Assembly (NCBI GenBank): GCA_951406725.2
Contig: OX597818.1
Location: forward strand, 89,900,001 to 89,964,000
Origin: Octopus vulgaris
Taxonomy: Eukaryota
Direction: 5' to 3'
DNA length: 64,000 nt
The position numbers were made by a program, and so were the translations under genes. Position 1 is the stretch's first letter; every line of letters begins with the position of its first letter. The notes below the pieces were generated by a model. The model was not told where the DNA came from, ran no database searches, and saw only the letters and a program-made list of their open reading frames with translations. Positions 1 to 38,720 of this stretch are shown in pieces.

Positions 1-238
1 AATTGAACCAATATGAACGAAAGTGAATAATCTATTACCTTTATTCTAGCACTCTACGGCTTTAGCTATTTTCACAGCTCTTGAAGCTGATAGTTGCTAC
101 CTAAAATATACAAGCAGTGAAAACGTAGAAATATGATGTCGATGGTGGAGCGTTTGAATTTCATCTATTACTTTCACGTATTGTTTTCATTTTAATATCT
201 CTGTTTCACTAAATGCCTAATTTTCTTCTTTGTCACAG

Positions 239-311
239 TATAATTTCGTAACTCCATTAACATCAATGGTTGTCGCCAACTCAAAAGTAAAAGAACATTT
301 TTTTGATGAAG
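239..311 (+). CDS. ITIH: ITIH-like gene, internal exon (phase 0-1), YNFVTPLTSMVVANSKVKEHFFDE
   Basis: Acceptor tttgtcacag, donor G|gtaatt. YNFVTPLTSMVV matches the hallmark ITIH motif (L)SLxYxFVTPLTSMVV that follows the VWA domain. Upstream exons lie outside the window. Confidence 0.9.
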
Positions 312-406
312 GTAATTTTTTTTCATTCATACCATTTTAAACTATTTTCATAAACTTCTTGTTGAAAGGAATTAGCCATGATCGTTTATCTCATAAAACC
401 TAAAAG

Positions 407-580
407 TACGAGGGGATGCTGAAAAGTTCCTGGATTTTAAGGGTGTCGTGAAAGGCCTGGCTGGGGCCCCATCATAACGAGTTCTTTTACAGGGCTTAGG
501 AAAACTGAAGGACCGCTGCAATAAGTGTGTGAATCTGAGAGGGGAATATGTTGAATGAATAATTTCAGCAGCCCCTCGTA
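407..580 (+). mobile_element. Mariner-derived MITE (TACGAGGG termini)
   Basis: tacgaggggatgctgaaa ... tttcagcagcccctcgta. Interior encodes a mariner transposase C-terminus, QGLGKLKDRCNKCVNLRGEYVE*. Confidence 0.75.
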
Positions 581-1555
581 TCTTCATTCTACTTTATATC
601 ATATCGTATCCCCTATTGCCATGATCTTCAGCTAGATATAAAATGTGCAGATATGCATGATAATTTGGAAAATTAGGCGCTAGAGTAAAGTTCCTTCCCG
701 AGTCATACCGACTTATAAGGGTTTCTAATATTGCGAGAAAAGATCTTGTAATAGTTTTTACAAGATCTCATAAAATTATTTGCTTTTTGTTTAAGTAACT
801 CCTGAAGTTTCTGCGTGAGGCAAAGCATCTCTGATATTTATTTCACATTTTCTGCTTACTTCTCTTATTCTAGCATCTTAATGTTCTCCAAAAAATATAT
901 TATTACAACCCATTTCGGAGCTGTTGCTCAGCCTTAGTATTTTTATTTATATTCTTTGCACTATAAAAAGTCTGACCGAAGTATTTTCCTATCTCTTTTC
1001 TTAATGACAGTACATAACTACTCCGTCCACATCTCAACGATCTATTTCAGTAAATCTGTCTTCATCACTTCAACTATTAACTGCAAAAAGCTGTGACTAA
1101 CGATGGAGAGATAGGCAACTTATTAAAACAGTTCTTTATTCTTCCCATAGTTTTCCTTTTTGTGTTCGCTGTTCTTCTTTAATCAAACTTCTCTGAGGTG
1201 AGAAAGTATTATAATTGATAGTAAGATATAATTACATTGTACGTGCTATGCAATATCGCAATGACTAATTTCATAATTTATTGTGACAATACATAATATT
1301 ACATTAATTGTACTTTAGACTGATCCAGCAAATATTTTCATCTAATTAATATCTTAGTCTGTATCATACTGTATACCCCAAATAAGGAAAACCTGTATTT
1401 ATGTAATTGTTTTAAAATTTATGTTTTCCCATTAAAACTGATACCTCTGCTGGCACAGTTTTCACTATATTACTATGATTTCATACTATAAATTTTATTT
1501 TCAGATTAACCATTATTATTTCAATTGTCAACAATGTATTTCTCTTCCTTTGTAG

Positions 1556-1576
1556 AAACAAAACAAATTCCGCGAC
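1556..1576 (+). CDS. ITIH: ITIH-like gene, 21-nt microexon (phase 1-1), (E)TKQIPR
   Basis: tctcttcctttgtag|AAACAAAACAAATTCCGCGAC|gtaagt: strong sites, frame-preserving. Confidence 0.7.
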
Positions 1577-2181
1577 GTAAGTATATTCACATTTGACTTG
1601 TTTAAAATAACAATACTCTATGAACTCTTGCTTTCATAATCCATTTCAAGTCATGCATGAAATAAACAACTTTTGTTTTTTATTCTGTAGCTTTGATTTT
1701 TTATTCCGAGTATTACTAGTAATGTCATTTTGATTGAGCACAAAACCATTTATTTTATATAGAAGTGATACAGAATATCGAAGCGACTCTAGTATATTAC
1801 TTGTACTTATTTTATCGAGCCTATGAAGATATAAGGTGATACCTCCACAATGAACTCGGCTGAGACCCCAGAACCATTTCACTCGTGGTTTATAGTCCCG
1901 CAAATCGGCATTGTGCGAATACTGAAGCAGAACATAGACGAGCTGACTATTCTTCGTATGCTTTGCATAATGCAAGATGCTAGCGGCTCACATGAGGCCG
2001 TATCTGTAGAGTTTATTCCTAACAAGCACTCTTGGTAAAGGACTTTAAGAAATTGTTCATAATCCTTGAAAGTCCTCTAAAAGAGATGACAGAGATAACA
2101 CCGTCGTCGAAACTCTGAAATTTTCCCGTGTCAACCATATTCTCTAGTAACCCTCTAAGAATACGCGGGCTGACGTCCCCT

Positions 2182-2223
<42 letters not shown>

Positions 2224-2259
2224 ATAATAATAATAATAATAATAATTATAATAATAATA

Positions 2260-2763
2260 ATACTTGCACTGGAACATATGCCGTCAGTATGATATTCCAC
2301 ACCCTAGGAACTGGTATGAACACCATCCAGAGCCAGTCACTGAGGGAGAGAATGTTACCATTCTATGAGATTATGAAATACATTCAGACAGGCATATAAA
2401 TGATAACAAAGCTGATATCGTCATCAAAAACCTAAAACAAGAAACATACCTGTTAATTCATATCACAGTACCTACTGATAGAAACATCTCAACAAAAGAA
2501 TTTGAAAAGCTGTCGAAATATAAGGACCTTGAGATTGAGATATCTAGGACGTGTCAATTAAAAGCCAAAACTATCCCTGTTGTAGTAGGTGCCCTGGAAA
2601 TGATCAAGAAAGGCACTGACAAATTTTTTTTTACCAGATCTCTGGGAAACCAACAGTCTATGAAACTCAAGAAGTTTCTCTCCATCTAATATATACGTGC
2701 CTTAGGTCTCTGCTTGAGGCCCAATCAGAACACGAAATAAAATGCAATTCAATCGGAAAATGG

Positions 2764-2765
<2 letters not shown>
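2260..2765 (+). mobile_element. R4/Dong-type LINE 3' fragment (restriction-like endonuclease) inside (TAA)n
   Basis: Decayed DIVIKN...ITVPTDRNISTKEFEKLSKYKDLEIEISR...IPVVVGAL, bounded by (AAT)n tracts. Confidence 0.75.
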
Positions 2766-2806
<41 letters not shown>

Positions 2807-2879
2807 GTCTCAAATCTTTGCACAAGGCCAGCAAGTTCGGGGGAGAGCTACGTTGATTACATCAACCCCAGTTTACGTC

Positions 2880-4400
2880 TGATCAAACTGTAGCGCGTAC
2901 TTTTCCGCTTTCTGGGAAGGGACGCGTTCCACTGGTCAAGTGCTCCATTTGTTGTCAACACCCGCTGAATGTAGGACTGGACATGGGCTGAAGTTACGAC
3001 ATCTCCAGCACTTCCTTGACGATGAGCACATGTGGTCACCTTTTGTTAGACTCGCTCTTCCGCAGCTCGTCTCTTTGACAGTTGCAGTTCTGGATCAAGC
3101 GTAGACAGGTACTCACAGCCCCCTGAAAGCCGGTCAATGTGGTCAGTGGAAGTTCCACTTGGGCATTTTATTGAGAGTTAGTGGCGAACAATGTGAAGGC
3201 GCATGACTCAGTGGTTAAAGCGTCGAGATTACGATCGTGAGGTTGTGAGCTCGAATCCCGGACCGGGCTGCGTGTTGTGTTCTTGAGCAAGACACTTTAT
3301 TTCACGTTGCTCCAGTTAACTCAGCTGTAGAAATGAGTTGCGACGCCACGGGTGCCAAGCTGTATCGGCCCTTGCCTTTCCCTTGGATAACACTGGTGGC
3401 GTGGAGAGGAGAGGCCGGTATGCATGGGCGACTGCTGGTCTTCCATAAACAACTTTGCCCGGACTTGTGCCTGGGAGGGTAACTTTCTAGGTGCAATTCC
3501 ATGGTCAGTGTCGTGACCGAAGGGGGTCCCGATCGAGTGGCGAACAAGTGCACGATGAGAATCAACTGGCCCATAGATAATTTTCAGAAATTCATGGCTT
3601 GTCAGTACTACCAGGTAAATAAACTCCACAGGCATGAAAGCGCCGTCAGCCAGGCTTGCCCGAAATGCACGCAGAGCGACAAAACTCTTCTGTATGGTTT
3701 CGTTTAATGTCCAAGCATTGCTTACTCGTGGGTTTATGTCGAACACCTGTTATCATGTGTAAGGCAGATGCGGCTATCAGCAGATTCCATTGTGAAGATC
3801 GTCTCGCCGCCTTCTTCTGGTCAGTGTGAGGGGAGGGGGCAGATACTGCTTATTTCTTTGGTGACCTTAGCGAATGAGGTTGCATGGTGGACCAGATTGA
3901 AAAGGCTGAAGACAGATACTCTCCTCTTTGGCTAAGAGCTCATCAGCTTCTTCAAGTTGCACTTGAAAAGGAAGGTGAGGTTAGAGAGGAAAGTGTTGCT
4001 TCCAGGCAATTTTATTGTAAGGTGGGTGAACGTTTGCAAGAATGATCTGCGCGAGCGGACCCACTCTAAGCATGCGCCTGTAGATTGAAGGAAGATGATG
4101 TGGAGAAGGCAGTTGATAAAGCCTTCATCGACTTTATCAAGTCTCACTTAGAATAAAAAGTAAGGGTGGAGAAGGTAATGCTGCTCTCTGTATTTTTGTT
4201 GAATGGTAAGTAAATGTGGTGGGTACAGTCCATGTGGATGGTCCTACTCTGAGCAAGCAACTGCAGACATGAGGGATTGAAGAGGAGAATATTACCTGCC
4301 TGAAGTGCCCTTGGCAATCAGGATGTCAAGGATATATGGGTTTCCTTCATTTCCCTAGGTTCCTGCTCCCCACTTTTGGTGATTTTTTTCTTCTTTAATA
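2880..4400 (+). mobile_element. Decayed L1/Tx1-like LINE 3' fragment, interrupted by a SINE
   Basis: ACPKCTQSDKTLLYGFV*CPSIA resembles a zinc knuckle. A second copy lies at ~35190-35900 on the minus strand. Confidence 0.55.
3192..3535 (+). mobile_element. tRNA-derived SINE, family A, with 12-bp TSD
   Basis: A/B-box-like head. TSD agtggcgaacaa at 3180-3191 and 3536-3547. Near-identical copies at ~15131-15468 and ~58711-59051. Confidence 0.85.
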
Positions 4401-4595
4401 TCTAATTGTTAATTGTTATTGTTTCATTGTTCACGTGTGTTTCTACGGGACTCCCCATAATCTAAAATTCTAAGTCGAACTTATAAAAACAGTTTAAATC
4501 TAATGAATATTCTTTAGATTTACGTTAACATAAATATCTATATATTTGATTGATATTTACATATCTTCATAATACTTTTTTTTTTATTTTTTCAG

Positions 4596-4610
4596 ATCAT
4601 GTGCGATTTA
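4596..4610 (+). CDS. ITIH: ITIH-like gene, 15-nt microexon (phase 1-1), (H)HVRF
   Basis: Long polypyrimidine tract, ttcag|ATCATGTGCGATTTA|gtaagt. Flanks are homologous to those of the 5882 microexon. Confidence 0.7.
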
Positions 4611-5881
4611 GTAAGTAGATAATTACTTCATATCAAATTCACATTTATAATTTTGCATTTAATAAATGTCTTATTTATAGATTTATATGTAAAATAAGAA
4701 TCATTTCATTCTAAAGACACACCTGCATCTAGAGTCCATGTAATGGAAATAAAATTCGGTGTGTTTTAGAAGAAAATCAGAAATTCTTGACAAAATATCT
4801 TCATTGGTTTAAGTTTTATCGTGAGAATAAAAGCAAATGTCTTTAAAAGTAAAAAGAAAGAATGCAATCTTTTATGTGTGTTTATTGGCAGTAAGTAAAT
4901 ATTATTCTTTGTAGAATAAAGGCTAGAGAATGTATTTAGAACCACATGTTTGCGCAGATGGAGATATTGAGTTCCCCAAGCTGTTACCACTGCTGATATT
5001 TTCTTTAAATCAAAATACATTACATTCATTTTAATTTATCGATATCCTGGACCTCTGGTCCTTGCTCATGACGAAACAGATATTAATACAGGGTTGAAAC
5101 AAGATACGTGTTTATTCGGATTTGAGTTTGCCGGCTGACAACAATAGTAATGGAATGTAAATGCGCCAAACGAAAGCTGCATTCCTTGTTATTCGATGGT
5201 TGTTCTGTATTGATAGGAAGATTTTCCTATGAAGCCATTTGCCTCACCCAAAGTCATTAGGTGTGCTGACTGTTTTGTTTTTTTTAAGAAGAAAAAAAAA
5301 CCTCGAAAAAACGATCTTTGATAATTATTCTGCTTCTGTTTCAAGGTTTATTACTCCGCCACGTTCTCGTTGGTAACCTGTGAAATCCAGTAATTTACAC
5401 GTCATCCAAATTAGATAATATACTGTTCATTTGTTTTTTTTTTTTTCTTTAAGAAAACGAATTAAGAATCGTGTTTTTAAAACTAAGTTAAAGAAAAAAT
5501 AAAATAATCTTTATATTTTTAACGGCTTCTTCAACAAATGCACCCTTTTTAAACGTTTTATTTGTAACTGTCAACAGTATTTTTCATGGTGGACCATATA
5601 GAAGTGGTGACTGCTCTGTTGTTGGACGGTTTATTCTAGCATTCATAGGCCACTTTTTACATTTGTTTGGTTATCTGAGTAAACTACAATATATATCGTA
5701 CCCACACAGCATCATGCACTATATTTGTACGTTGATATATTTCGATATATGTGAAGTAAATATTTTTATATTTAATACTCTCAAAACTATATGAAAAAAA
5801 TCTATTATTTTTAGACATACGTTAACATAATTTTATATTTGATATGTTCATAACAATATAAAATCTTCATTGCTTTTTCAG

Positions 5882-5896
5882 AACCCCACAGAGTAG
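5882..5896 (+). CDS. ITIH: ITIH-like gene, 15-nt microexon (phase 1-1), (K)PHRV
   Basis: ttgctttttcag|AACCCCACAGAGTAG|gtaagt, frame-preserving. Confidence 0.72.
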   Translation, partial: NPTE

Positions 5897-6135
5897 GTAA
5901 GTAGACTCTCTCTTCATACCATTTATTTTATGTATATGATAAACTAAAGCAAGGCAATCTTGAGAGACGCACTCGTATCTAGACTGTTTAGTTGAAAGAA
6001 AGCTGACCATTTTACTCAAATAAGTTTTCGGTGGTTCTTTGGAAAGAATGAAATTTAAATTAAAAAGTTTTTATGGAGATGAAAATATTTTTTTATGACT
6101 AGTAAAAATACATAATTGTATAAATGTATGCGTAC

Positions 6136-6452
<317 letters not shown>

Positions 6453-7202
6453 AAGTAGAGGCTAATACCAAGCTCCTGTTTAATGGTTATTCCCCAAAAT
6501 GCTTTTAACTAACTATACAGATTTTTAAAAATTTCTCTTAATATTTACTAACAAATGGTTAACAGAGAAGACCTGCTCTATCCAATTTAAGTTACGTTTT
6601 GTCATTATTTTGTCTTTTTGAGGGTGGAAATGCTTCGTTATTTTACTTGTCCATATAAAGCATCATAAATATCTGAACACCTGTTTCATTAATATTGATT
6701 TCTTCATTAAAAAATTGTAGAAAATCTCTTAAACGCAAAAATTACGTAATATTTGGTCTTTTGGTAATGCTTGTTCTATTTTACCATATAATCCCGATTC
6801 AAGATTAGTTATTTTATTCAGACACAGCTAATATCGATCTAATATTAATGTAGCGGCTTTTTTTTTGTTTACTGCTATTCAACCAAATTTGGTTAAACTG
6901 TTTTTAATAGCTAAAATATGAATAACTTATCAAATATAATATTTTAACTAAGGACATAATTATATTCCAAACAATTTTTACAAATTCTATTATGAAACAA
7001 AAATATCACAAGAGCATATTGTAGTATCTTATATTGTACACGTTTCAATCATTAGTCTACTGCTATGCTGGGGCACCACCTTGAATAATTTTTAGTCGAA
7101 TGAATCGACCCCAGAATTTAATATTTCTTTTTAAGTCTAGTATTTATTTTATCGGCCTCTTTTGCTGAGCCACTAAGTTGCGGGGAGATAGACACACCAA
7201 CA

Positions 7203-7866
7203 GAGCGTGATTGTGCCGACAATGTTTTATGGTGCAGATACGTGGAGGATGAAAGATGTGGAAAGGGGGCAACTAGATGTGTTTGAGATGAGATTTCTGA
7301 GGGCTATGGTTGGTGTGCCACGGATGGACAGAATGAGGAGGTACGAAGATGAGCCGGAATGAAAGAAAAACTAACAACTAAATTGGATAGAGGGAATTTG
7401 AGGCGGTTTGGCCACATGGAGAGGATGGATGAGGAGCGGATGGTAAGAAGGGTGATGAAGGCTGAAGTGGTAGGCAACAGAACTAGAGGCAAGCCTCGGT
7501 TTGTGTGGATGGATGGAGTGAGGAAAGCTTTGGTGGTTAGAGGTGTTGGAGTGAGAGGCAAGAGAGTTTATAAATGACAGGAAAGCTTGGAGAGTGTTTG
7601 TGGATAGATGAGTGAATTTTGATGTTGCTCAAAGGGGTACAGAACCAGTATGGTGTGGCGGGGGTAAACCTGGGTATGCTGTCGGGCCTCACTGCTGATA
7701 TTGGAGGTTTACGTTCTATGCCTTGAGCCGAGCATAGAACTGGGCTCGCCCCATTGAGTTTGGGAAATGAACGGAATGCCTGCTGTGTGTCTTGCTGTGG
7801 CTACCCCTTCCAAAAAAAATGGGGAATAGGCCTGGATATATGATATGATGTGGTGTGATATGATAT
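7203..7866 (+). mobile_element. RTE-clade LINE 3' fragment inserted into a SINE remnant
   Basis: PTMFYGADTW...FEMRFLR...LRRFGHMERMDEER...RTRGKPRFVWMDGV is a typical RTE RT C-terminus. Short (GATAT)-type tail. Confidence 0.85.
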
Positions 7867-7928
7867 TTTAGATTTCAGATATATTTTTGCAATTTTTTAA
7901 TATAATTTGAATTTAAATATTATATTAG

Positions 7929-8018
7929 CCACAACACCGCCAGTGACTGTTCCCCGATCAACTAGAGCCCCACGAAGAACTCCACGAAAACCAGTGCCAA
8001 TCCTTCCACATATTCCTG
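7929..8018 (+). CDS. ITIH: ITIH-like gene, 90-nt Pro/Thr/Arg-rich exon (phase 1-1), (A)TTPPVTVPRSTRAPRRTPRKPVPILPHIP
   Basis: tattag acceptor, CTG|gtaaga donor. GC-rich open frame embedded in an AT-rich intron. Confidence 0.8.
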
Positions 8019-8773
8019 GTAAGAAAACACGTTACATTTATTTACTCATTTTTAAAATGATACCTTTTTGCTTTTAAACATGTTCAATTCTTTATCGAGA
8101 TACTCCAACCAATATATTGACACATTTGTAATGAATAAATGTTGTAAAGAGTTGAATATTAAAAATGAGTCAGCAACTTTCATTTCTAAAATTTAAGATG
8201 TAAAATTTAAAATTATTCTTCGCACTCCTTCGTCAATTAATACTGATATATTAAAGAATTTTGTATGTGATTTGTATTGAATGGTGGTAATGCTGTGCGC
8301 TACCATCGACACTATTTTCTTCAAGATTATTTTATCTGTTCACACATTCGACACCCATTAGACAGTTTAGGCTTTTTAAAACAACTGTCCAATGTTAAGC
8401 TCTTAATAAATCTTTTGGGATGGTTTATAACTGTAGCCGTTATCCCAAGATTAATGCGTATCTCTTATGTTATTATTAACGTTTTTGTTTCATAGTAAAG
8501 CTTCATATCGAAATAAGGTATATAGGTATATGGCACAACCAAGATGATCAATTATTTGTTTATAATAAATTATCATAATTTATTTCTAAATATGTTAATG
8601 TATTATAATCAAGGTATTTAGTTATTAGGAAGCTGAATATTCTGTTAGTTAGTTCACCTAAGTTACTAATTAATTAATCATTAAAAAAACTCTTCTACGG
8701 AAATTTACAGTTGATTAACCTATTTTGAAACGAACAGAGAAAACTTTGTATCTTTTCTATATCATTATGGAAT

Positions 8774-8990
8774 AAGGCGGCGAGCTGGCAGAATCGTTAT
8801 CATGTCGGACAATAATGCTTAGCGATATTTCGTCTGTCTTTATGTTCTGAGTTAAAATCCCATCGAGGTCGACTTTGCCTTTCATTCTTTCGAGATCAAT
8901 AAAATAAGTACCAGTTGAATACTGGGGTCGATGTAATCGACTTACCTCCTCCCCAGAAATCCCTGGCCTTGTGCCAAAATTTGAAACCAA
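8774..8990 (+). mobile_element. SINE family D (ggcggcgagctggcagaatcg...gactttgcctttcatcc...)
   Basis: More than 10 copies: ~10000-10213(-), 14825-15018(-), 20160-20390(-), 30557-31020, 36490-36685 (18-bp TSD ataatttagatctaacaa), 42545-42957(-, partial tandem), 55272-55470, 56120-56330, 58015-58198, 61980-62220. Confidence 0.85.
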
Positions 8991-9168
8991 TATTATCATG
9001 GGATATAAATTCCATAATAAATTTGTTTCGTAGCTTTCAGTCCGAGTAACAGAAAAGGGCGGATTCTTTTCTTTCACAAACTTATTAATAGTTCAAATAT
9101 GCTTAGGGTACGTACACATTACTGTTTTGCGTTTCTATTAAGTCTTTTCTTTTAGTATTTCATTAATA

Positions 9169-9572
9169 GGATCTTTTCGGTTTGAACGGCAGTTTTTTCT
9201 AGCGGTGTCATATGAAATTGTCACCCATAATTATGACCCTAGTATCGATCAATATGTTTTAGGGTTAGGGTTGGGGGGGGAAGGGTATTTTTTTTTCTTC
9301 ACAAATGTAAATAAACCCAATCTGTTTCTTAAACGAGGGACATATTCATACGGCACAGAACGTTTTTTTTTATCTCAATAGACGTCAGTGATTGGTTGAA
9401 ATTGCAGAAATTGAAGAAAAAAACAACAAATATCTTACAAACTATAGAATTTTCTCAATAAAGCCAAGAGAAAAAGATGTTTTATAAACACATTCTACCA
9501 GTATACGAAGTTTAAAATTTTTTAGTTACCTAGAAATTATGTTAAAAACTGCCGTTCAAACCGAAAAGATCC
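9169..9572. mobile_element. Non-autonomous DNA transposon (MITE), 29-bp perfect TIR, 8-bp TSD, Merlin-like
   Basis: TIR GGATCTTTTCGGTTTGAACGGCAGTTTTT at both ends. TSD cattaata at 9161-9168 and 9573-9580. Confidence 0.85.
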
Positions 9573-9729
9573 CATTAATAAGTATGCGTACCACCATATG
9601 TGTATGAGTGTAGCTGTGATTTACTCAGTGAAAATACATGAATATATTTAATTTACATTCACATATTTTATTAATAGAAAACTGCTACGTTTGGAAATCA
9701 TTTCTATTTGTTTTATTTTGTATTTGTAG

Positions 9730-9834
9730 CCATTTTACTAAAGCCATTAAATTGCGAGGCAGAACTGTGTTTCACTGATAGTATTCAATGCAGAAACCAA
9801 ACTGATATTGTGCTTTTGGCTGACAGAGCAGCAA
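9730..9834 (+). CDS. ITIH: ITIH-like gene, exon starting the C-terminal (ITI_HC_C-like) domain, (A)ILLKPLNCEAELCFTDSIQCRNQTDIVLLADRAA
   Basis: tttgtag acceptor, A|gtaagt donor, 105 nt, phase 1-1. LCF...IVLLAD resembles ITIH LCFNI...LxLVxD. Confidence 0.82.
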
Positions 9835-10575
9835 GTAAGTGATTCACTATTGTATTATATCTATCGAAATATAACTTGCCATTGATATATTTTCCACGAC
9901 AGAATGAAATATTTCATGCATTTTCCGAAAGTTTTGCACAGGATTTTGTTGTTCTATTTGCAATTTATTGAAGAGAGTGGCGTCAAAGTTGTTTAGTATT
10001 GGTTTCAAATTTTGGCACAAGGCCAGCAATTTCGAGGAAGGTAGTAGTCAATTAAATCGACCTCAGTGCTCAATTAGTATTTATTTCATCAATCCTGAAA
10101 GGACGAAAGGCAAAGATGACCTCGGTGGAATTTGAACTCAGGAGGTAAAGAGAGACGAAATGCTGCTAAGCATTCTGCCCGGCATGCTAACGACTCTGCC
10201 AGCTCTCCACCTTCAAATTTTCACAATATTAAGAACTACGTTGTACTCACCTTTAATACTTCATGTGCAATTTAATGGATATTTAAATATGTAATGCTAT
10301 TTATCCAGTATTAATCTATGCAGTGTCACATACCCCAAATCATAACAATGGAACTGCATAAACTATATCGCAGTACCGAAATATATAATATAACATAAGC
10401 TGTATTAAAATACGTGATACCTTATACGATATTATGGCAGAGAATTTGGTAACACATAATGTATGTTCATTTCATTTGCATATATGAGAAAACAAAGACG
10501 ATATGAAAAATATAATTAAGATTTGAATTTTCATAACATACACACTGCTTCCAATTCTAATTTTTCTAAATAAAT

Positions 10576-12379
10576 TCTTATTATAAAAGGCAGATTTTAT
10601 CTGCCTCCTTTGTATCTTATAGAAATCTACAATATAGGATTTCTTCAATTACAATTTACCTAGCATTTTTAAGAGTAGAATGCATCGGGTCGTGCCAGGT
10701 CCACTTTTTAAAATTTCAACCCCAATTAAGCAAAATTTAGAGAAAACTCACATTGTGGTGCATGAGTCAAATGCTTCTCTTAGTGTGGGATACAGCACAC
10801 GCAAACGCACACACACAGTGTGCAACGAATAAAGTGAAAGTAATTCACTTTCTGTAGTGAGTGACTCTTTCACTCTACATTCCCACTTCCTCTTTACACA
10901 CATAGACACGCAAATATATAAATAAAATTGTAAGCTAACGTGTGTGTGTGCGTGTGTGTGAGTGTGTGTGTGTGCGTGTGTGTGCGTGTGTGTGTGTGAG
11001 GGTGCGTGAGTGTGTGACAGGAAAGTTTTTTAGGACGAATATAAGACCTATATCCAAGTAGCAGAAAGATCGCCCAAAAGTGTATATAGATATTTAAATG
11101 TATTTATATATTCATCTATACACAGATGTATGTTTAATGTGTGTGTATATATTTCCATAGAGGTAACCTTTCACTCCATACAAAGTTTTTTAGGACGAAT
11201 ATAAGATCTAAAGTATATACAAGTAGCACAAAGATCGCCCAAAAGTGTATATAGATATATAAATGTATTTATATATTCATCTATGCACACATGTATGTAT
11301 AACGTATGTGTATATATTTCCATAGAGGTAACCATTCACTCCATACAAAGTTTTTTAGGACGAAAATAAGATCTAAAGTTATCTCTAAGAAACAGAAAGA
11401 TCGCCCAAAAGTGTATATAGATATTTAAATGTATTTATATATTCATCTATACACACATGCATGTATAATGTGCGTGTATATATTTCCATAGAGGTAACCA
11501 TTCAATCCATACAAAGTTTTTTAGGACGAAAATATTTATATATAAAAGAAAGGTTGTGTGTCTGTCTACTCCGATTTAGATTCCTAACTACTCCCACATT
11601 TTGCGATGCAGTTTAACCAAAACCGGGTATCTTATAGTCGTGATTCATATCGAGCCCTTCTGGGTATTAGTGCACGTTTACGATGAGTCTATGATTTTAC
11701 AAATAATTTACCATCATTTTTTTCCATTTTAATGCATATTTTTTTTAATAAAGGGAAGTAACTCTCAAACTTCACACCAATATGCGTGCTCATATGCGAC
11801 GTAATATCACATCAGCAGCATTTCCTCACACCCTCCTTGCACTTGGCGAAGGCAAAATACCAGGGGATGAAAATGGTAATATTGCCATCGATTCCATTTG
11901 TACCATTGTTAAGACGCCTTCTGATCTCAGAGATGCAGTGTTCCCAGATCTACAAGCTAATTATCAGAATATGGATTGGATTGGCAAAAAGGCTATACTG
12001 GCCCCGAGGAATAAAACTGTTCACCATATTAATGATGAAATGCTAAAACTCATTCCTGGGGAAGTCTATGTATATCAGTCTATCGATACAACTCCTGACC
12101 CAGAGGACGTCATCAACTATCCAATAGAGGTACTCAATTCCTTTGAGCACCCCGGACTACCACCACACTTTCTCAAACTTTAAGTTGGTGCCCCTATAAT
12201 GCTCATCAGAAATTTGGTTCCCCCAAAACAATGCAATGGCACACGTTTGATCGTTAAGTCCTTATCTCCCACCGTAAGCTTATATCAATATTTGCCTGAA
12301 TAATCATCATAATTCAGTGCAATCATTAACAGTACTTTCAAGCAATTCAGCCCCGAGCAACGCCGGGCAATTCTGCTAG
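10576..12379 (+). mobile_element. Non-autonomous Helitron with PIF1-like helicase fragment
   Basis: 11782-12275 encodes LLALGEG...KAILAPRN...YQSID...NYPIEVLNS...GLPPHFLKL*VGAPIMLIRNL...CNGTRL. 3' hairpin cccgagcaacgccggg then CTAG|t. 5' TC-ttattataaaa. Confidence 0.88.
11021..11531 (+). repeat. Three tandem ~160-166-bp units inside the Helitron
   Basis: aaagttttttaggacga recurs at ~11022, 11182, 11347 and 11513. Confidence 0.9.
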
Positions 12380-12816
12380 TATATAATATTTTTGCGTTAT
12401 ATAAGAATTATAATTTAGGCCTTTAGAATTACAGCTGAAGTTTAGCATTGTCTCTCGAAAAAAATATCTGTATAGGTGTTATGTAAAGAAGTGTTTACTA
12501 CAAAAAAACTTGTAAGGAGATAATCAAACAAACTGTAATCCAATGCAAATTAGATAATTAAGTATGATTCCAAGAGATGAGTTTACGAAGTGTGCTATGG
12601 AGATCCTGATGGTAAGTTATCAGGAACACAAGGAATTGTATTGAGTAGGTTTTAAAGTATCAAAGGATGATATATTCCAAAAGTAATTTGATGATGAAAG
12701 CAAAAAGTAATCAGTATAGGATGAGGATATAGAGATTAAAGTTTTTAATTATATGTGAAATAACATTTATATTCCATTTCATTGGAATGTAATCACACAC
12801 ATTGTAAAATAACTTA

Positions 12817-13026
12817 TATACAGGGGAGTGCTGAAAAGTTCCAGGTTTTGGGGAAAAGAAAATGCAGGAGGATCAGTCAATTATGCTTTTATTCAACCTG
12901 TTCTCTCAAATTCACATACTTATTACAGCAGGCTTTCAGTTTTTCTAAACCTTGTAAAAGAACTTGGAAGGTTGGGCCTCCAAGCAATACCCCTAAAGCC
13001 ATGAACTTTTCAGTATCCCATCGTAT
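12817..13026 (-). mobile_element. Mariner-derived MITE, same family as 407-580
   Basis: tacaggggagtgctgaaaagttc ... gaactttttcagtatcccatcgta. Interior is the reverse complement of the 407 copy. Confidence 0.65.
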
Positions 13027-13035
13027 ATATATATA

Positions 13036-13229
13036 TATAGGGAAAGTTTACGAAAAAAAAAACAAAGGACGAAGACAAGTGGTGTACAAAACAAACAGAT
13101 ATATTAGTATAGCGCTCAGGAATAGAAAAAGTCTTTTACGTTTCGAGCCTACGCTCTTCTACAGAAAGGTACACAGAAAAAACATGGAGAGAAAAAAATG
13201 TGTGTAGTGGCTAACGATCTATCATGGCG

Positions 13230-13273
<44 letters not shown>

Positions 13274-13292
13274 TTCTCTCTCTCTCTCTATG

Positions 13293-13354
<62 letters not shown>

Positions 13355-13560
13355 CACACACACACACACCATGATTGACTGCTAGCTCCAAAAGATTTTT
13401 TATTCTCTCTCTATTTATTTCCTCGTGTTCCTTTCTGTTGAAGAGCGTAGGCTCAAAACGTAAAAGACTTTCTCACCTTCCCGAGCGCCAAATTAACACA
13501 CCTGCTTGTTGTTTATACACCCGTCTTCGTCTTTTATTTTTCTGCAAATGTCAACTGTAT
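13036..13560. mobile_element. Inverted pair of Penelope-like terminal-repeat fragments around a (CT)n(TA)n(CA)n tract
   Basis: 13036-13200 is a diverged reverse complement of ~13397-13560. Each carries a hammerhead-like motif (ctgtNgaagagc-gtag-gctc(g/a)aaacgt). Confidence 0.65.
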
Positions 13561-13621
13561 ATATTAACTTATGTATTTTATTTTAATATAATCTTACGTA
13601 TATATTCTCTTTATTTTACAG

Positions 13622-13906
13622 AAATATATATTTATGGCCAAGTGAGAAAGGTATCAGACACTAATTGTTTAGAAACTCTTGATAGAGTGTTTGTAAATAT
13701 CAGAAACAGAGTATCTGAATTTACTCCTGAATTTTTTAGAATAAGAGGTAAAATTTATGAAGGCAACATTCTGGAAAAAGTTCATCTCAAACTGGGAACA
13801 TTCGTCCGGTTATTAGTATCGATTCAAAAAACTGAAAACTCTGAAAAAGTTATTTTCTTGCATTTTAAAATATACAGGAGCTTTATTGAACCCAAAGGAA
13901 TTCTGA
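13622..13906 (+). CDS. ITIH: ITIH-like gene, 285-nt exon (K)IYIYGQVRKV...LHFKIYRSFIEPKGIL
   Basis: ttttacag acceptor, A|gtaagt donor; the 3' part of ORF 13375..13914. YGQV and FLHFKI...KGIL(S) resemble ITIH VNGQL and LGFY...HGLLG. Confidence 0.85.
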
Positions 13907-14226
13907 GTAAGTAATATTTCTTTTCTTTCTTTCTGTTTTTTTTTTGTTTTGTTTACAATTAAAGAAAATTCTTTGGTTGTATTAGATGAGTTTTCATTAG
14001 CATATAAACAGGAGGGCTATGAAAGTATTAATTATTAATGACGAAAGAAATTAAAGAAGTGCTAAAAGTTTTAAAAGAGCTGTATCGTATCCACTCTATA
14101 TTAATGCAATAATTTTAAGTATTAAATTAATATTAATTATAAATTGGTTTCAAATTTTAGCATCAACCTCAGTTTTCAGTTGGTAATGAACGCAAGGATG
14201 AAAGGCAAAGTCAACCCCAGCGGCAG

Positions 14227-14711
14227 TGGAGGCGCAATGGCCCAGTGGTTAAGGCAGCGGACTCGCGGTCGTAAGAACGCGGTTTCGATTCCCAGACCGG
14301 GCATGTGAGTGTTTATTGAGCAACAACACCTAAGCTCCACGAGGCTCAGGCGGAGGGGTGGGGGTGAACCCCACTGTACCCTTTCACCACAACTTTCTCT
14401 CACTCTTTCTTCCTACTTCTGCCATAAAGTAGAGGAACCATGCTGAAAATCACATTGTTGTCGTAAATTTTCAGACTCTAGTCTAGATTACGAATCCTCT
14501 GTACCCCAGGATGTGTTCAGCTCTCCACCCGTTAAAAGCCACCGTTTACGGAATGAGGATAACAACGTAGCTTTCGCGCCCGTGCAACCGCCAGTCTATC
14601 GCGTGTGGTGGGTGGATCTTCAAGTTGCCAAGCGCATTCTTAGTAGCTTAGAGTAGGCTCGAATTAGAAATTATTCTTTGTGGCTAATGGCGTGAGTCCT
14701 GATTAGCAGAA
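14227..14711 (+). mobile_element. tRNA-derived SINE family B, long-tail variant, nested in a family D SINE
   Basis: ggaggcgcaatggcccagtggtt head, TSD acc(c/t)cagcggca. Same long tail at 38249-38720. Other family B copies at ~22039, 22591, 23395-23711(-) and 44866. Confidence 0.8.
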
Positions 14712-15912
14712 GACCTCAGCGGCATTTGAAATTAAAACCTAAAATCGAAAGAAATGCTACAAAGTATATTTTCCTGGTGCGGTTATGATTTTGTCAGTTC
14801 GCTGCCTTAATTTCAATTGAAATACTGGCTTCATATTTTGGAACAAGGCCAGTAATTTCAGAGGAGGGGCTAAGTCGATTACATCGATCTCAATGCTCAA
14901 CTGATACTGATTTTATCGACTCCGAAAGGATGAAAGGCAAAGTCGACCACGGCAGAATTTGAACTCAGAACGTAAAGACGGATGAAATGCCGCTAACGTT
15001 TCTACCAGCTCGCCGCTTTAATTTCAACTGAAATATTTGGCATCAGTTGTATAGAGTGACACACAACCATTTTTAGTGACCTTTGGGATATTCACTTATT
15101 GACCATTTATGTCTTCTGCTATGGCTGCAATGTGAAGGCGCATGGCTCTGTGGTTAAAGCGTCGAGCTTACGATCGTGAGGTTGTGAGCTCGAATCCCGA
15201 ACTGGGCTGCTTGTTGTGTTCTTGAGCAAGACACTTTATTTCACGTTGCTCCAGTTCACTCAGCTGTAGAAATGAGTTGCGACGTCACAGGTGCCAAGCT
15301 GTATTTGCCTTTGCCTTTCCCTTGGATAACACTGGTGACGTGGGAGGGGAGGCAGATATACATGGGCAACTGCTGGTCTTCCATAAACAACCTTGCCCGG
15401 GGTTGTGCCTGGGAGGGTAACTTTCTAGGTGCAATCTCATGGTCTGTGTCGTGACCGAAAGGGGGTCTCAGATATAGATGCAATAAACTTCCTGTAGGAA
15501 TATTTTTGCAGAACAAATACTACCTTCACATCAAAAGGTATAAGATGTCATAAAACAAGTTAATTTTGAAACATAAAGACATGTTTTCTAGCCATTTTTA
15601 CAAAATATTTTTAGTAAATGAATAACTGTTTTACATTTTAAAACGAAAAAAACTAAATTTGATACACATACAAGACGCGTGAAAAACAGTTAAAAGAGTA
15701 TTAAAAATTATTTTTTGGTATTTTTTCATGTTGACTCTTTGTTTATAACTACAATTATATGAAAACTTACATAAACATCTATAATATTTTCTATGTTAAT
15801 TCAATCTTCAAAAGTATATTAAAGGGATGTATGATATTTAAAATAAATTGATTCCAAGATTCGCTGTCTAATGAAGATATATTATTAATTTGTTAATACG
15901 TTTCCATTTCAG

Positions 15913-16046
15913 GTGATTATGTAAAAAACTTACACTGTACTAGACAGTCACCGAACCAGATAGTTTTGTCTAATAAAGTGACTGCTTTTCATAAAGTCAA
16001 GTACAAAACCATCATTAGACGTTGGAAAAGATGTTTTAAAATGTGA
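15913..16046 (+). CDS. ITIH: ITIH-like gene, terminal coding exon (S)DYVKNLHCTRQ...RWKRCFKM*
   Basis: ttccatttcag acceptor, phase matches the previous exon, 43 codons then TGA. Confidence 0.8.
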
Positions 16047-16146
16047 GCGACAAGAATGAGGTTGTATCTTGATTTAATCTAAAATAATCTTTCACATTAG
16101 GATTGCTATGATGTAGAAATATATTAATTTGATAAATACACCGATA

Positions 16147-16221: not shown

Positions 16222-16470
16222 TATATATATATATATATATATATATTATCGGTGTATTTTATCAAATTTTTAATTTTTTCTTTCTTTTTTTGGTTTTGTT
16301 TGTCTCAGGTCTTCTATACTTAATTTAAGTGCTCGTTGGATCGCACTGTCTATTAGGGGCTGTGGATAATTTCTATTTATGAGTGTAGTTCTAAGATAAT
16401 ATATATATATGTATTATCGGTGTATTTTATCAAATTAATATATTTCTACATCATAGCAATCCTAATGTGA

Positions 16471-17088
16471 TAGACTCCAAGCAGTACCTACCCTCTGATT
16501 CATGCCACCCAAGACACACTAAAATAAATGTCCCTTTTTGTTTAGCTAGAAGGATTTACACCATAATATCAGACACAAACACCCGACACACACGTCTCCA
16601 GGAACTTAGAACTACACTCATAAATAGAAATTATCCACAGCCCCTTATAGACAGTGCAATCCAACGAGCACTTAAATTAAGTATAGAAGACCTGAGACAA
16701 ACAAAACCAAAAAAGAAAGAAAAATTAAAAACCCTTCCCTACATCTCTACACACAACCCACTTAACAATGAGGCCTTCAACACCATACTACAAAGCACAG
16801 CCCTACTAAAGGGAGACCCAAAGATGAACCGGATCCTCGAAACACACACCATCATTAAAAGTAAACGCCAACCAAAATCCTTGAAAAAAATTTTAACCCA
16901 AGCTAAACTGCACTCAACATCAACCACAAAACCAGCAGTTAGAAAATGTGGAAAGCTTAACTGCGGAATCTGTGTCATCTTGGTAGAAGGAATAAAGGGT
17001 GCATTATGCAATCTTCTCATCAAGAAAGAAAAGGAGCCTCTCTCAACAACAAGATGAGAAGATTGCATAATGCACCCTTTATTCCTTC
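16471..17088 (+). mobile_element. Penelope-like element ORF fragment (RT thumb to linker region)
   Basis: ORF 16467..17057, DSKQYL..DSCHPRHTKINVPFCLARRI...RLQEL...RNYP..LI...KCGKLNCGIC, is typical of the region between RT and GIY-YIG in PLEs. Confidence 0.82.
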
Positions 17089-17725: not shown

Positions 17726-18986
17726 TGGGTCGAATCATAAATAGTTTCCGTTTTTTGGAGGTAAATTGTAACGATGCAATTCGAACTTCAATGGTTTTAA
17801 TTGAAATTGAAGCTACCGTTTTCAAAAGAGCCTTGCCTTTCATTCATATTTAAACAGTGAAAGCGTGCACGTCATAGTTTAATATCAAGTTTCACTCCGC
17901 TAAAATGGATGAACTAAAAGTGCATATTTGACATGTGATATTGTGGGCGTTGAAGAATGGGGGAGGAGGAAACACAACAGAAACAGGTAAGAAAATATGC
18001 AGTGTTTATGGCCAAGGCGTTGTTACTGAACGGCAAGTGCGAAATTGGTTTTTCAAAGTTTCGTTCCGGAGCGTTTTCATTGAGAGACAACTCAGACCAT
18101 GATGCTCATCAGACTTCGATCAAGAAACTTTAAGCGATTTAGTGGAATTCAGTCCTCGTAAAAATACTCGGGAATTAGCAATTGACCTCAATACATATCA
18201 ATTCATCATCTGTCGCTACTTGGAAAAGATAGGAAAAGTCAGCAAGTTGGAGTATAGGTTCCCCATACTCATAGTGAGAAGAATAAGGAAGATCGCATGT
18301 CCATTGTGACAAGTCTTCTTCCAAGACAGAGAAATTACCTGCTTCTCAATATCATTACAGGTAATGAAAAATGGGTCTTTTATGACAATATTCAACGCAA
18401 AAGGCAGTGGATTGACAAGGATAAATTCACTTTGACCTACCTCAAAGGCTGAGCCCCATTGAAGGAAGGTTGTGGTGTGTCTATGGTGGGATCACCGCAG
18501 TTTTATTCATTTCGAGTTTTTAAACTGCAAGCACTAAATGTCAACTTATACTCTCAACAGCTGCGATGTGTGCATGAAAATCTTTTAAGAAAATACCCTG
18601 CACTCGTTAGTAGGAGAAACGTTGTGCTTCTCTCAGATAACACAAAACCACATTCAGCAAGAATCGCGAAGGATAAAATATTGGATTTGGGCTGGTCTGC
18701 TCTATCCCATCCACCACATTCGTCAGACCTTGCATCAACTGATTTCTATCTTTTTCGCTCTCTACAAAATACTCAAAATTCCTCAAGAAGATCAGGTGAA
18801 AATATATGTGGAAAACGTCTTTATGTCGAATCTAGGGGAATTTTACTCGAGAGGAATCAAAAAGCTACATGATAAATGGTAAAAGATCATTCAAAATAAT
18901 AACAAATTGAAAATAATTCTTTGTAAAAGTTTTTCATGAGTAAAGGTGTTTAACAAAATCAGAAATTATTTATAACTCAACCCAAT
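17723..18986 (+). mobile_element. Full-length decayed mariner transposon
   Basis: TIRs cattgggtcgaatcataaatagtttccgtttt / aaaatcagaaattatttataactcaacccaata in TA context. Frameshifted transposase from ATG 17905 with VPH, ITGNEKW, HPPHSSDLASTDFYLFRSLQN. Confidence 0.9.
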
Positions 18987-29568: not shown

Positions 29569-30020
29569 TTACTGCTCCTCTGACCGGTTTCTCATTTCGG
29601 CCATGACCTGCTCATAAGAAGGGGGTGGTGTTGTGTAGTCATCTTTATCGTTCGTGCAGGAATGGGGATATGGTGGATGACCAGGGTACTGAGGTGGGAG
29701 ATCCTTTGGAATCTGGTCAGGAATGTCAGTAACTATACTTGTTGGATCGGTTGATGTCTGCGCGCGGGGCGTGTATGGTGGCGAGGCCACTCCTGCTGCC
29801 ATTGCCGCTGCTGCTGTTGGCGCTGTTGTTGTCGACGCATTTGCTGTTGCCGTTGCACCCATTCGCTGTCGTCTCAGAGGCTGCTGCAGTATGCCAGGTA
29901 TGAGTAAGGTTTCAGAACTAGCTTCCTGTACCATCTGATGTCTCCTGAGGCATCGACCTATCACTAATACCACAATGGCCAACACCAATGCTATAGAGAT
30001 GCCCAAACCAATCAGTGTAG
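29569..30020 (-). CDS. Uncharacterised type I membrane protein, terminal exon: TM helix plus Pro/Ala/Thr-rich cytoplasmic tail with PPxY motifs
   Basis: Minus-strand acceptor tttttatattttcag at 30021-30035. LIGLGISIALVLAIVVLVIG is followed by basic RCLRR. LPPQY and PPPSYEQV motifs present. Stop TAA. Confidence 0.88.
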
Positions 30021-32355
30021 CTGAAAATATAAAAAAAGGAAAACAGACCAATAATAAGTATCTATAAGAAGATATCCACAATTTTAATACTCATCTGATG
30101 CATCATTATTATTATAATTATGAAGGTGGCAAGCTGGCAGAATCATTGGCTTGCTGGATGAAATGTATAGGCCTTGTGCCTATAGTAGAGAGAATTATTA
30201 TTATTCAGAGCAGCTGACTGGTTTCCTTGCCAGTGGCACATGAAAAAAATTCAAGCGAGGTCATTGTCAGTGCTGCTGGACTGGCTCCTGTGCAGGTGGC
30301 ACATAGAAAACACCATTTGAGCGTGATCGTTGCCAGTACTGCCTGACTGGCCCTCATGCTGGTGGCACGTAAAAGAACCCACTACATTCTTGGAGTGGTT
30401 GGCATTAGGAAGGGCATCAAGCTGTAGAAACTGCCAGATCAGAGTGGAGCCTGGTGCAGCCATCTGGTTCTCCAGACCTCAGTCAAATCGTCCAAACCAT
30501 GCTAACATGGAAAGCGGACGTTAAGCAATGTTATTATTATTATTATTATTATTATTTAAAAGGTGGTAAACTGGCAGAATTTTTGGCACACCAGGAAAAA
30601 TGCTTAGCAGCATTTCATCCGTTTTTATGTTTGGAGTTCAAATTTTGCCAAGGTCGACTTTGCTTTCATCTTTTCAGGGTCAGTTAAGTAAGTACCAGTT
30701 ATGCACTGAGGTAAATGTAATCAACTAGTTCCTTCCCCACAAATTTCAGGCCTTTTACCTTTAGTAGAAAGGATTAATATAATTATCATTAAAAAGGCAA
30801 TGAACTGGCAGACTTATTAGCACACCAGACGAAATGCTGCGCCACATTTGGTCCGTCTTTTCATTCTGAGTTCATCACTATGTTCTAAGTTCAAATTCCG
30901 CTGAGGTCGACTTTGCCTTTCATCCTTATGGGGTCGATAAGTTAAGTAACAGTTGCGTACTGGAGTCGATGTAATCGACTGAGCCCCTTCCCCCAAATTT
31001 CAGGCCTTGTGCCTATAGTAAAAAACGATTATTATTATTATTATTATTGGCAAACTGTCAGACTCATTAATATTGGAAAAGTTGTATAGAAAGACGTATA
31101 ACCTTTCTGTAGAGTTTATAAGGGAATGAAAACATCGTTCTCCTAATTTTATTACATGAATGATAACATGAGATTTCAGGGGGTAGACTACTGTCTCTTG
31201 TTTGGTGAAATCCGAAACACCAGATGAAGACATGTATCAATAAAAGAAACAGCTATATTGAAGTAAGGGAGACAACTAGCCTGCATTCATTTGCTTAACT
31301 CCCCTGCTGAAGTAGTTCTCAGTGAAAACCAGATACAAATAAATAAATAAATGCTTGCTCCTTAACTAATTGGTTTGGGATTTGGTCCAGCGGTACAGAA
31401 CCTTATACAAGTGTTTTCTACTGTCGGCTGATTAGGCTCTCTAAAGCCTTTTGGGTGAATTTGTCAGACGGAAACTGAAAGAAGACCGTCGTATACGATA
31501 GGAGTAAATAAGCAACACAATAGTGCTTCCAATATCCATATACAATATGCCTATGCGAAATATTACATATATATATATTAACATAAGATTGAGGTCTCAA
31601 TTCCTGGACTGGGCAATGTATTGTGTTCTTGAGCAAGACACTTCATTTTCCATTGCTCCAGTCCACTCAGCTGGCAAAAGTGAGTAATCCTACAATGACC
31701 AGCTTCCCATCCAGTGGGTAGGGTGAATATATAAGCCACAGAATCTGAGAAGCCAGCTATGTGAGCCTATGAAGGCCCTTTTTTGATAATACAAGAATAT
31801 GGTGCCAAGTGAACACAACCTGAATAAACCCCAAAATGTAGGTGAGATTTAAGTCGAATGACTAACACTGTTAATGGTTTATGGTTTTGGAGTGAAGGAA
31901 CGTGGTTTAGTGGTTAGGGTGTTGGGCCCATGAGCATAAGATCATGAGTTCAGGTGCTGGATTGGGTAATGCAGTTTGTCCTTGGACAAAGCACTTCACT
32001 TTTTATTGCTCCAGTTTACTCAACCAAAGAAATGATTACCACCTTTGTTCTGGTGAAGCTCTATTTACCTCTGGCTGTCACATCTTCAGTGTTCTGCTGG
32101 ATCAAACATGAGCAGAGTACCTATGAGCAATGTACCTATGAGCAGAATACCTATAAGCAGAGTATCTATGTCTAATTACATCTACATTGACTCCTAAAAC
32201 AATTAGCAAAGGCATAGCACAATCTACCAAGTCATACTCATTTGTGAGTGATGGCTAAGGAAGCTTCTTGAGTGAATAAGAGTGCCTCAATCTGCGAGAG
32301 AAAGAGCAGCCAAATTTCCTTCTATTCTCTTTTAAACAGGATGGATACATTCAAC

Positions 32356-37560: not shown

Positions 37561-37594
37561 ATAAATCATATATTAACAATAATGCTCAACATAC

Positions 37595-37722
37595 GCTCAA
37601 ACCCTTCATGACAAATATAGTTGAAAGATTCTTCAAATGATTCCAGAATTTTCTCAAATTCATCCTTGTCCACACATGGTTTCAACTTTTCTTCCACACA
37701 ATCTTTGAAGTTGTAGATTATT
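37595..37722 (-). CDS. Membrane protein gene, exon (phase 2-1) IIYNFKDCVEEKLKPCVDKDEFEKILESFEESFNYICHEGFE
   Basis: ttcttcttctgcag acceptor, gtatgt donor; the core of ORF 37566..37775. Confidence 0.87.
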
Positions 37723-38720
37723 CTGCAGAAGAAGAACACACAAATCAAAGAACGATAGTTACGATACTTTATCAAACAAAAATAAGTAAGTTGTTACCTG
37801 TTCTAGAAAAATGTTGAGTACAAAGAAAATTACATAATATAATATAATATAAAAGGATGAAATCCTTTCTGAGTTATATGGATCAATCCATTGCAGGATT
37901 ACACATTTTTGCTAGCTGGAGTAATGTGAAATGAAGTGTTTTGCTCAATAACACAACGCATAACCCAGTCCAGGAATTGAAGCCACTATCTTATGATCAT
38001 GAGTCCAACACCTTAACCACTTAGCCACATGCCTCCACTACATAATATAATGGTGATGGGCTCTCCTGTCGAAGATGATGTAATAGCGTTCAGCTTTTGC
38101 TGAATGACCCGCATAAATGATTTGTTTATAGTGATCAAATTGTATGTACTGTACATTAAACTTACCCACTTCCTCAAATCTATGTTGTCTGAACAGGTGC
38201 ACTGTGCACTACACATCAGGTGTCAAAGTGATAGCAACAGCAGCAGCAGTGGAGGTGCAGTGGCCCAGTGGTTAGGGCAGCGGACTCGTGGTCGTAAGAG
38301 CACGGTTTCGATTCCCAGACCAGGCATTGTGAGTGTTTATTGAGCAAAAACACCTAAGCTCCACAAGACTCCACAGGGGTGAACCCCGCTGTACTCTTTC
38401 ACCACAACTTTCTCTCACTCTTTCTTCCTACTTCTGCCACAAAGTAGAGGAACCATAATGTAACCGACTGTGGTGTGGTAAACTTTCAGACCCTAGTCTA
38501 GATTGCGAATCCTCTGTACCTTAGGATGGTTCAGCTCTCCACCCGTTAAAAGCCGCTGTTTACGGAATGAGGATAACAACGTAGCTTTCGAGCCCGTGCA
38601 ACCGCCAGTCTATCGCGTGTGGTGGGTGGATCTTCAAGTTGCCACACGCTTTCTTAGTAGCTTAGAGTAGGCTTGAATTAGAGATTATTCTTTGTGGATA
38701 ATGGTGTGAGTCCTGATTGG

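Follow-up and report, generated by a model that had tools for sequence, protein, structure and literature searches.

The window (the whole stretch of 64,000 nt from Octopus vulgaris that was analysed) contains two candidate microexons of 15 nt, here called ME1 and ME2. The preliminary description had proposed that the pair was born by local duplication. This is well supported by the alignment of the surrounding intron sequences, which scores well above the next best place in the window. Judged from its sequence, the octopus pair belongs by origin with the tandem duplicated exons. The divergence between the two exon bodies is likely due to relaxed constraint; positive selection is not demonstrable. 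The features are listed in Table 1.

Table 1. Features of the duplicated microexon cassette and of the predicted host gene (positions in the window).
Feature	Position	Strand	Basis
21-nt phase 1-1 exon, GTAAGTA donor, TTAAC at -50	1556..1576	+	predicted
Duplicated cassette, copy 1 (ME1 and intron flanks)	4460..4807	+	local alignment
13-nt block identical in both copies (TTAAC at 4525-4529), putative distant branch point of ME1	4521..4533	+	sequence; function putative
ME1, predicted 15-nt phase 1-1 microexon	4596..4610	+	sequence and scans
Downstream conserved block, copy 1	4716..4733	+	pairs with 5966-5983
Duplicated cassette, copy 2 (ME2 and intron flanks)	5770..6077	+	local alignment
Copy-2 counterpart of the 13-nt block, with TTAAC at 5822-5826; putative distant branch point for ME2	5818..5830	+	sequence; function putative
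TGC at position -11 relative to the ME2 acceptor; ME1 has none	5871..5873	+	sequence
ME2, predicted 15-nt phase 1-1 microexon	5882..5896	+	sequence and scans
Downstream conserved block, copy 2	5966..5983	+	pairs with 4716-4733
90-nt phase 1-1 exon, Thr/Pro/Arg-rich linker	7929..8018	+	predicted; run contigs
105-nt phase 1-1 exon, 3 Cys and N-Q-T sequon	9730..9834	+	predicted
285-nt phase 1-1 exon for a predicted alpha/beta domain of no known family	13622..13906	+	predicted; run matches
Candidate last coding exon, stop-ended, cationic tail	15913..16046	+	prediction only; least certain part of the model

ME1 and ME2 share the layout TTTTTCAG, 15 nt, GTAAGTAGA and are thus bounded by AG and GTAAGT. 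They are offset by 1286 nt, with a spacer of 1271 nt. Only 5 of the 15 exonic nucleotides are identical (random expectation 4.2), and an Arg codon (CGA in ME1, AGA in ME2) stands at the same codon position. Coordinates, offset, match count and Arg codon all agree with what had been described. The whole codons are predicted to encode His-Val-Arg-Phe in ME1 and Pro-His-Arg-Val in ME2. ME1 has a T-rich acceptor and the donor TTA/GTAAGT, the exonic side of which (TTA/GT) is weak and fell below the donor cut-off in the first scan; the donor of ME2 is TAG/GTAAGT. A scan for symmetric short exons (positions 1-16100) returned four candidates, none of them between ME1 and ME2. Three of the four are the 21-nt exon, ME1 and ME2, each with a GTAAGTA donor. 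The polypyrimidine tract of ME1 (0.93) is the strongest among the four, that of ME2 being weaker. The two microexons are adjacent on one strand in one predicted gene and are of equal length and phase, which is the pattern of tandem duplicated exons. The reading frame stays open with all four inclusion patterns of ME1 and ME2.

A few observations concern the exon bodies themselves. AGTAG, the five bases that close ME2, occurs again within the ME2 donor (5892-5904), and ME2 has an internal CAG. Its body could have been remodelled by slippage or a splice-site shift rather than by point mutation. A shifted alignment of ME1 and ME2 with 3-nt indels, made by hand, gave 6/12 matches at most and was rejected. 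ME1 bears what we take to be a likeness to an RFamide motif, but a reading as RFamide neuropeptide was dismissed, as the codon that follows starts with A and cannot encode Gly.

The homology is visible in the introns. The local alignment of the two cassette copies scores 114. When both strands of the window are scanned, the partner copy scores 112 and the next best place 66. The shared 8-mers of the two flanks are collinear (offsets 1297, 1293, 1300 and 1286), and all flank blocks listed earlier were found again in collinear order. TACGTTAACATAA occurs in the window only at 4521 and 5818, and the block GAC.CAC..G.ATCTAGA only at 4716 and 5966; both patterns were picked post hoc. The homology reaches over ~350/310 nt around the exons (about -140 to +210), which is short of the 1286-nt spacing. 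Because it fades beyond these points, a head-to-tail unit of 1286 nt cannot be demonstrated. The cassette of copy 2 ends just before a microsatellite at 6138.

Flanks of this composition may align by chance, and the preliminary description had named an alignment no better than that of shuffled AT-rich sequence as the finding that would speak against duplication. The flanks were compared, after removal of the splice consensus, with GC-matched real windows. The upstream flank exceeded all of these (3000/3000 and 3000/3000), and the score of the downstream flank was reached by 60/3000 and 12/3000. With composition-aware scoring, the upstream score was reached by 0/89 and 0/200 windows and the downstream score by 0/932 and 1/431. 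The comparison with shuffles is less uniform. The downstream flank by itself is non-significant when scored in the plain blastn-like way (41/500 shuffles reach its score). For the two flanks together, the anchored global score is 376 (300 shuffles: mean 280, sd 31), and one of the 300 shuffles (the best, 413) lies above it. Overall, the similarity of the flanks exceeds chance, these two shuffle tests being the weaker results.

The exons had also been described as more diverged than their flanks. Descriptively, this holds: 5/15 is the lowest value of any 15-column window in the 270-column alignment, the flank minimum being 6/15. Against a neutral model, the excess is borderline, and the feature was picked post hoc. 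Flank identity is 74%, compared with 69% for gapped shuffles of AT-rich DNA (80% AT). Because shuffled flanks already align at this level, a simple binomial P (0.001) would mislead. Neutral divergence was simulated with indels, and runs resembling the observed flanks were accepted; the outcome depends on the priors. P(<=5/15) was 0.093 in the first simulation (1004 of 33,899 accepted) and, depending on the flank used, 0.035-0.066 in the second, composition-aware one (599-3019 of 61,999 accepted). The far-downstream block, which is not an obvious splice signal, still gave 0.061 when used as flank. The estimated flank divergence is ~0.5-0.6 substitutions/site (~0.5 with a 90% range of 0.34-0.78 in the second simulation). 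The codon counts between ME1 and ME2 are tiny, with 3 differences at 3.5 synonymous sites (pS 0.86) and 7 at 11.5 non-synonymous sites (pN 0.61). Since synonymous differences are not rarer than non-synonymous ones, the counts give no sign of selection specific to amino acids. The donor, the AG-free zone and the putative distant branch point, all of them splice signals, account for several of the flank blocks that are kept best. As flank conservation sits in these elements, part of the contrast between exon and flank is intron constraint, not exon acceleration. With neutral P values of 0.035-0.093, pS not below pN, and a flank contrast inflated by gapped AT-rich alignment and splice signals, the diversifying selection that had been proposed is not borne out.

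The splice signals of the two copies have been kept. TTAAC is located at -71 in ME1 and at -60 in ME2, at the 5' edge of an AG-free zone of 76 nt and 65 nt, respectively. In the 21-nt exon, TTAAC likewise stands at the 5' edge of such a zone (49 nt). The AG-free zones of the gene's other exons span 34-134 nt, so that a long zone is not specific to ME1 and ME2. All 17 nucleotides of the splice core (TTTTTCAG and GTAAGTAGA) are the same in both copies. At ~0.5 substitutions/site (0.65^17, ~7e-4), this suggests selection on both splice sites. The text available on vertebrate neural microexons describes extended regions between branch point and 3' splice site (PMC12871342).

The TGC near the acceptor had been associated with SRRM4/eMIC regulation. 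It is indeed present in ME2 only, but 116 of the 476 acceptor-like sites in the window (24%) also have a TGC. The eMIC code in fly, as given in the portion of PMC8797185 that was covered, consists of UCUC tracts and a CUAAY branch point. In the ME1 and ME2 acceptors, a scan found no TCTC and no CTAAY, only TTAAC and TTGAT.

The host gene model (1556-16046, plus strand) has six internal exons, all of phase 1-1, and its frame is open to the stop. The first 47 predicted residues include 11 Pro, 8 Arg, 6 Thr and 4 His (net charge +11). Arg makes up 17% of this linker, and the first Cys is at predicted residue 56, the 55 preceding residues being Cys-free. Six Cys and one N-glycosylation sequon follow the linker, and the last 25 predicted residues are strongly cationic (net +9). 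The model suggests a disordered, basic stalk ahead of a Cys-containing domain, which may be extracellular because of the phase-1 symmetry, the Cys and the sequon. A signal peptide and the 5' end of the gene were not found in the window. A further candidate for a symmetric phase-1 exon (39 nt, 1011-1049, plus strand) is unsupported and has a weak GTAAAT donor. The 21-nt exon was considered as an older third copy and rejected, as the similarity of its flanks to those of ME1 and ME2 is within the null (reached by 266/403 and 38/354 controls). The intron between the 105-nt and 285-nt exons holds a 165-bp tandem repeat (11022-11534; 3.1 copies, 91% matches).

No homolog was found with the 94-aa exon among proteins of 166-2000 aa (0 of 37 candidates) or of 51-165 aa, and a search of 1.84 billion representatives returned only one spurious match to a repeat protein. 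The same database contains proteins from O. bimaculoides and Argonauta, which is weak evidence that the host gene is either unannotated or diverged. Pfam gave no family for four exon translations of the gene, searched as single exons. The ESM Atlas had no usable match (best 0.77), and the metagenome scans were empty. A single-sequence AlphaFold model (pLDDT 59) has the order beta-alpha-beta-beta-beta-beta. With this model, Foldseek returned nothing at E<=0.001, and the best hits of the VIA fold search were DcrB (Z 7.1) and a designed cystatin fold (6.2), none reaching 8. We had assumed a likeness of the domain to VWA or to cystatin/cathelicidin, and an alpha/beta domain followed by a cationic tail presumably recalls cathelicidins. 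Neither a degenerate VWA nor a cystatin/cathelicidin reading is supported by the fold searches. The literature covered on octopus microexons and eMIC (supplements were outside its scope, and most subscription journals are not covered) has no description of this locus, and neither does the covered text of 10.64898/2026.09.05.749416, PMC11703226 and PMC9168663. The host is likely an apparently unannotated octopod gene.

Matches to sequencing runs add some detail. Among the runs listed, the 285-nt exon is present in 20 of 24, and 10 have at least half of its words. Rows with a small share, like the four rows at 0.00, carry no weight as evidence. None of the 24 is on record as RNA, and their RNA status is a guess. 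Four runs were aligned over 6470-10900, a region that excludes ME1 and ME2; SINE contigs dominate the joint table, which shows no joint between exons. Contigs of three of these four runs (X1, X2 and X5) cover the 90-nt exon. Run X14 does not cover it, and the adjoining intron bins have no cover, but neither point counts as evidence. With from_end calibrated on record 17, the start of the aligned X2 piece falls at 7926; depth arithmetic places its end at about 8017, one base short of the predicted 8018. Its three extra bases, TAG, are equal to the end of ME2, unlike the end of ME1 or of the 21-nt exon. The piece may, weakly, indicate a splice from ME2 to 7929, but a contig that simply ends at 7926 would look identical. 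X2 differs from the window at 7963 (synonymous) and at 7967 (Ala to Pro).

Other parts of the window were inspected. Three minus-strand exons (29569-30090, 37566-37793 and 42160-42513) likely belong to a gene for a membrane protein that spans the bilayer once, with Cys in its ectodomain and PPxY-like motifs in its tail. In this neighbor, the last exon has 86% identity to O. bimaculoides LOC106871567 (the UniRef name begins with “Chondroitin proteoglycan 4”). The neighbor also shows 58% identity to an Argonauta protein, and one of its exons has a sub-threshold match to DUF1397. An ORF fragment at 11752-12270 (plus strand) is presumably a Helitron helicase of the PIF1 type. From their translations, we take several decayed fragments to be RTE-type LINE-like (7200-7600), Penelope GIY-YIG-like (16395-17057), mariner-like (18000-18900), Ty3/gypsy-like (45967-48260) and CR1/L2-type LINE-like (54455-55027).

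Our account, which we consider somewhat more probable than its negation, is that of a duplicated cassette with retained splice signals, loosely constrained residues, and additive or independent use of the copies. About 0.5 substitutions/site ago, a piece of ~350 nt with a functional microexon would have been duplicated locally, by unequal crossover or a repair-type event. In both copies, selection may have preserved the GTAAGT donor together with the long AG-free zone and the distant branch point. Since a 15-nt exon needs these signals, both would have stayed spliceable. Each copy would act as an in-frame microexon that adds five residues to a disordered, basic linker rich in Pro, Arg, His and Thr. 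Length, frame and basic character of the five residues would matter, and their identity little; with so little sequence constraint, the exon bodies could have drifted to near-random identity. As cassettes, the copies would add up or be skipped independently of each other, which would tune the length of the linker, rather than form an enforced either/or pair. Exon change that was faster than neutral is, at borderline strength, compatible with the data (least conserved window, neutral P=0.035-0.093). It is the core of an alternative that we regard as unlikely, namely that, after duplication, the exon bodies were positively selected or had whole segments replaced, in the manner of venom genes or MEGs that diversify an exposed surface of a secreted protein. 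This would explain why the exon match is both at the random level and the alignment minimum, and it fits the P of 0.035-0.066 under composition-aware scoring and an orphan host with phase-1 symmetric exons. Such a pattern is known in three-finger toxin genes (PMC2474615) and MEGs (PMC4350168), as far as the available text of these papers goes. It is opposed by pS not being below pN, by the P of 0.093 in the other simulation, by the post hoc choice of the feature, and by kept flank sites that concentrate in splice signals. One may speculate further, by analogy with MEGs and venom genes, that the stalk at the N-terminus of a secreted protein specific to octopods is diversified by copied 15-nt phase-1 cassettes, which keep a frozen splice machinery while their five residues are quickly exchanged by positive selection and combined through alternative splicing; we would give this little credence.

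Equal length, equal phase and homologous origin would also suit a mutually exclusive pair, the pentapeptides of which are swapped by tissue, with ME2 possibly neuronal via eMIC (Srrm2/3/4) and its UGC. The long AG-free zones, the weaker polypyrimidine tract of ME2 and its UGC at -11 are all traits that the covered part of PMC8797185 gives for eMIC exons. We find this arrangement rather unlikely, as a spacer of 1271 nt and a frame-neutral double inclusion impose no exclusion, and the eMIC component is opposed by the TGC background, the missing TCTC and CTAAY, and the range of AG-free zones in the other exons. Mutually exclusive use of duplicated exons is, moreover, uncommon according to the covered text of PMC9741552. 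Another reading has only ME2 in use, with ME1 as a decaying pseudo-exon from the duplication that diverged freely for this reason. The weak exonic donor side of ME1, which failed the first-scan cut-off, points in this direction, and the sole expression hint (X2) concerns ME2. After ~0.5 substitutions/site, ME1 nevertheless has an open 15-nt frame, the best polypyrimidine tract, a 76-nt AG-free zone and a perfect GTAAGT, so that its decay is very unlikely. In canonical protease inhibitors, the P1 residue sits in a loop constrained by disulfides or by the scaffold. The preliminary description had taken the shared Arg as a fixed P1 residue with diversification around it, which would place it in the bait or activation loop of an inhibitor; CGA/AGA at the same codon speaks for this idea. 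With Arg at 8/47 residues of the linker, the two pentapeptides would share an Arg at one of their positions in ~14% of cases by our own arithmetic. The Arg is located in a Pro-rich, Cys-free segment rather than in a Cys-constrained loop, Pfam found no inhibitor family in the single exons, and the pLDDT-59 model gave no clear fold match. The P1 proposal is thus considered highly improbable.

Tandem exon duplication is well known and is usually recognized from the exons; here, the origin can be read only from the introns. The coding trace of a 15-nt exon is soon lost, and the case shows that the flanks of a microexon pair can serve to date and classify it. The octopus pair is a small natural experiment on the cis-elements of cephalopod microexons (distant branch point, AG-free zone, GTAAGT), and the TGC in one copy provides a one-motif contrast for eMIC control in octopus. 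The locus also points to an unannotated octopod gene. If the reading as stalk diversification were true, it would capture, at a stage that can be dated, how a microexon is born by duplication in a mollusc. As it stands, the case is a neat but ordinary exon duplication of modest present value.

The closest known systems are compared on the basis of those parts of the cited papers that were available. Tandem duplicated exons are adjacent homologous exons of one gene that arose by local duplication (PMC9741552, citing Kondrashov and Koonin 2001). The octopus pair resembles them in equal length and phase, in residing in one gene and in local duplication, but its homology is visible in the introns only, and the duplication is lineage-recent rather than ancient. 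Schistosome MEGs (PMC10526429, PMC4350168) have in common with it symmetric, very short exons, mostly of 15 bp, introns of kb size, difficult annotation and orphan-like secreted products, secretion being only presumed in octopus. In the octopus gene, micro-exons are 3 of at least 7 exons and contribute 51 of ~665 predicted coding nucleotides in the window, the 5' part being missing. Since they do not make up most of the coding region, the gene falls outside the definition of a MEG. It also has a predicted folded Cys domain and a paralog pair with pN 0.61/pS 0.86, and it belongs to a mollusc, not a flatworm. Neural microexons under eMIC/SRRM4 control (PMC8797185, PMC12871342) are similar in being shorter than 27 nt and in the long AG-exclusion zone, the distant putative branch point and the UGC, the latter in ME2. 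The octopus pair differs in having no UCUC tract, no CUAAY and no UGC in ME1, and its host is, as far as the searches go, not a conserved neuronal gene.

The likeness to two further systems is an analogy without evidence of shared function. The P exons of avian fast troponin T have a size of 15 nt. As would hold for the octopus pair, they are a run of short, alternatively spliced, His-containing exons that lengthen an N-terminal variable region (PMC7581897, available part). Their products, however, are acidic His-Glu repeats that hardly differ from each other and lie in a muscle protein inside the cell, whereas the octopus exons are basic, dissimilar and part of an unrelated protein. In ASSET, the accelerated evolution of exons in snake three-finger toxin genes (PMC2474615, available part), a dissimilar short exon segment is likewise accompanied by alignable introns. 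That process concerns paralogous genes, whereas the octopus case is an exon pair within one gene, with borderline excess divergence and with no relationship to toxins found.
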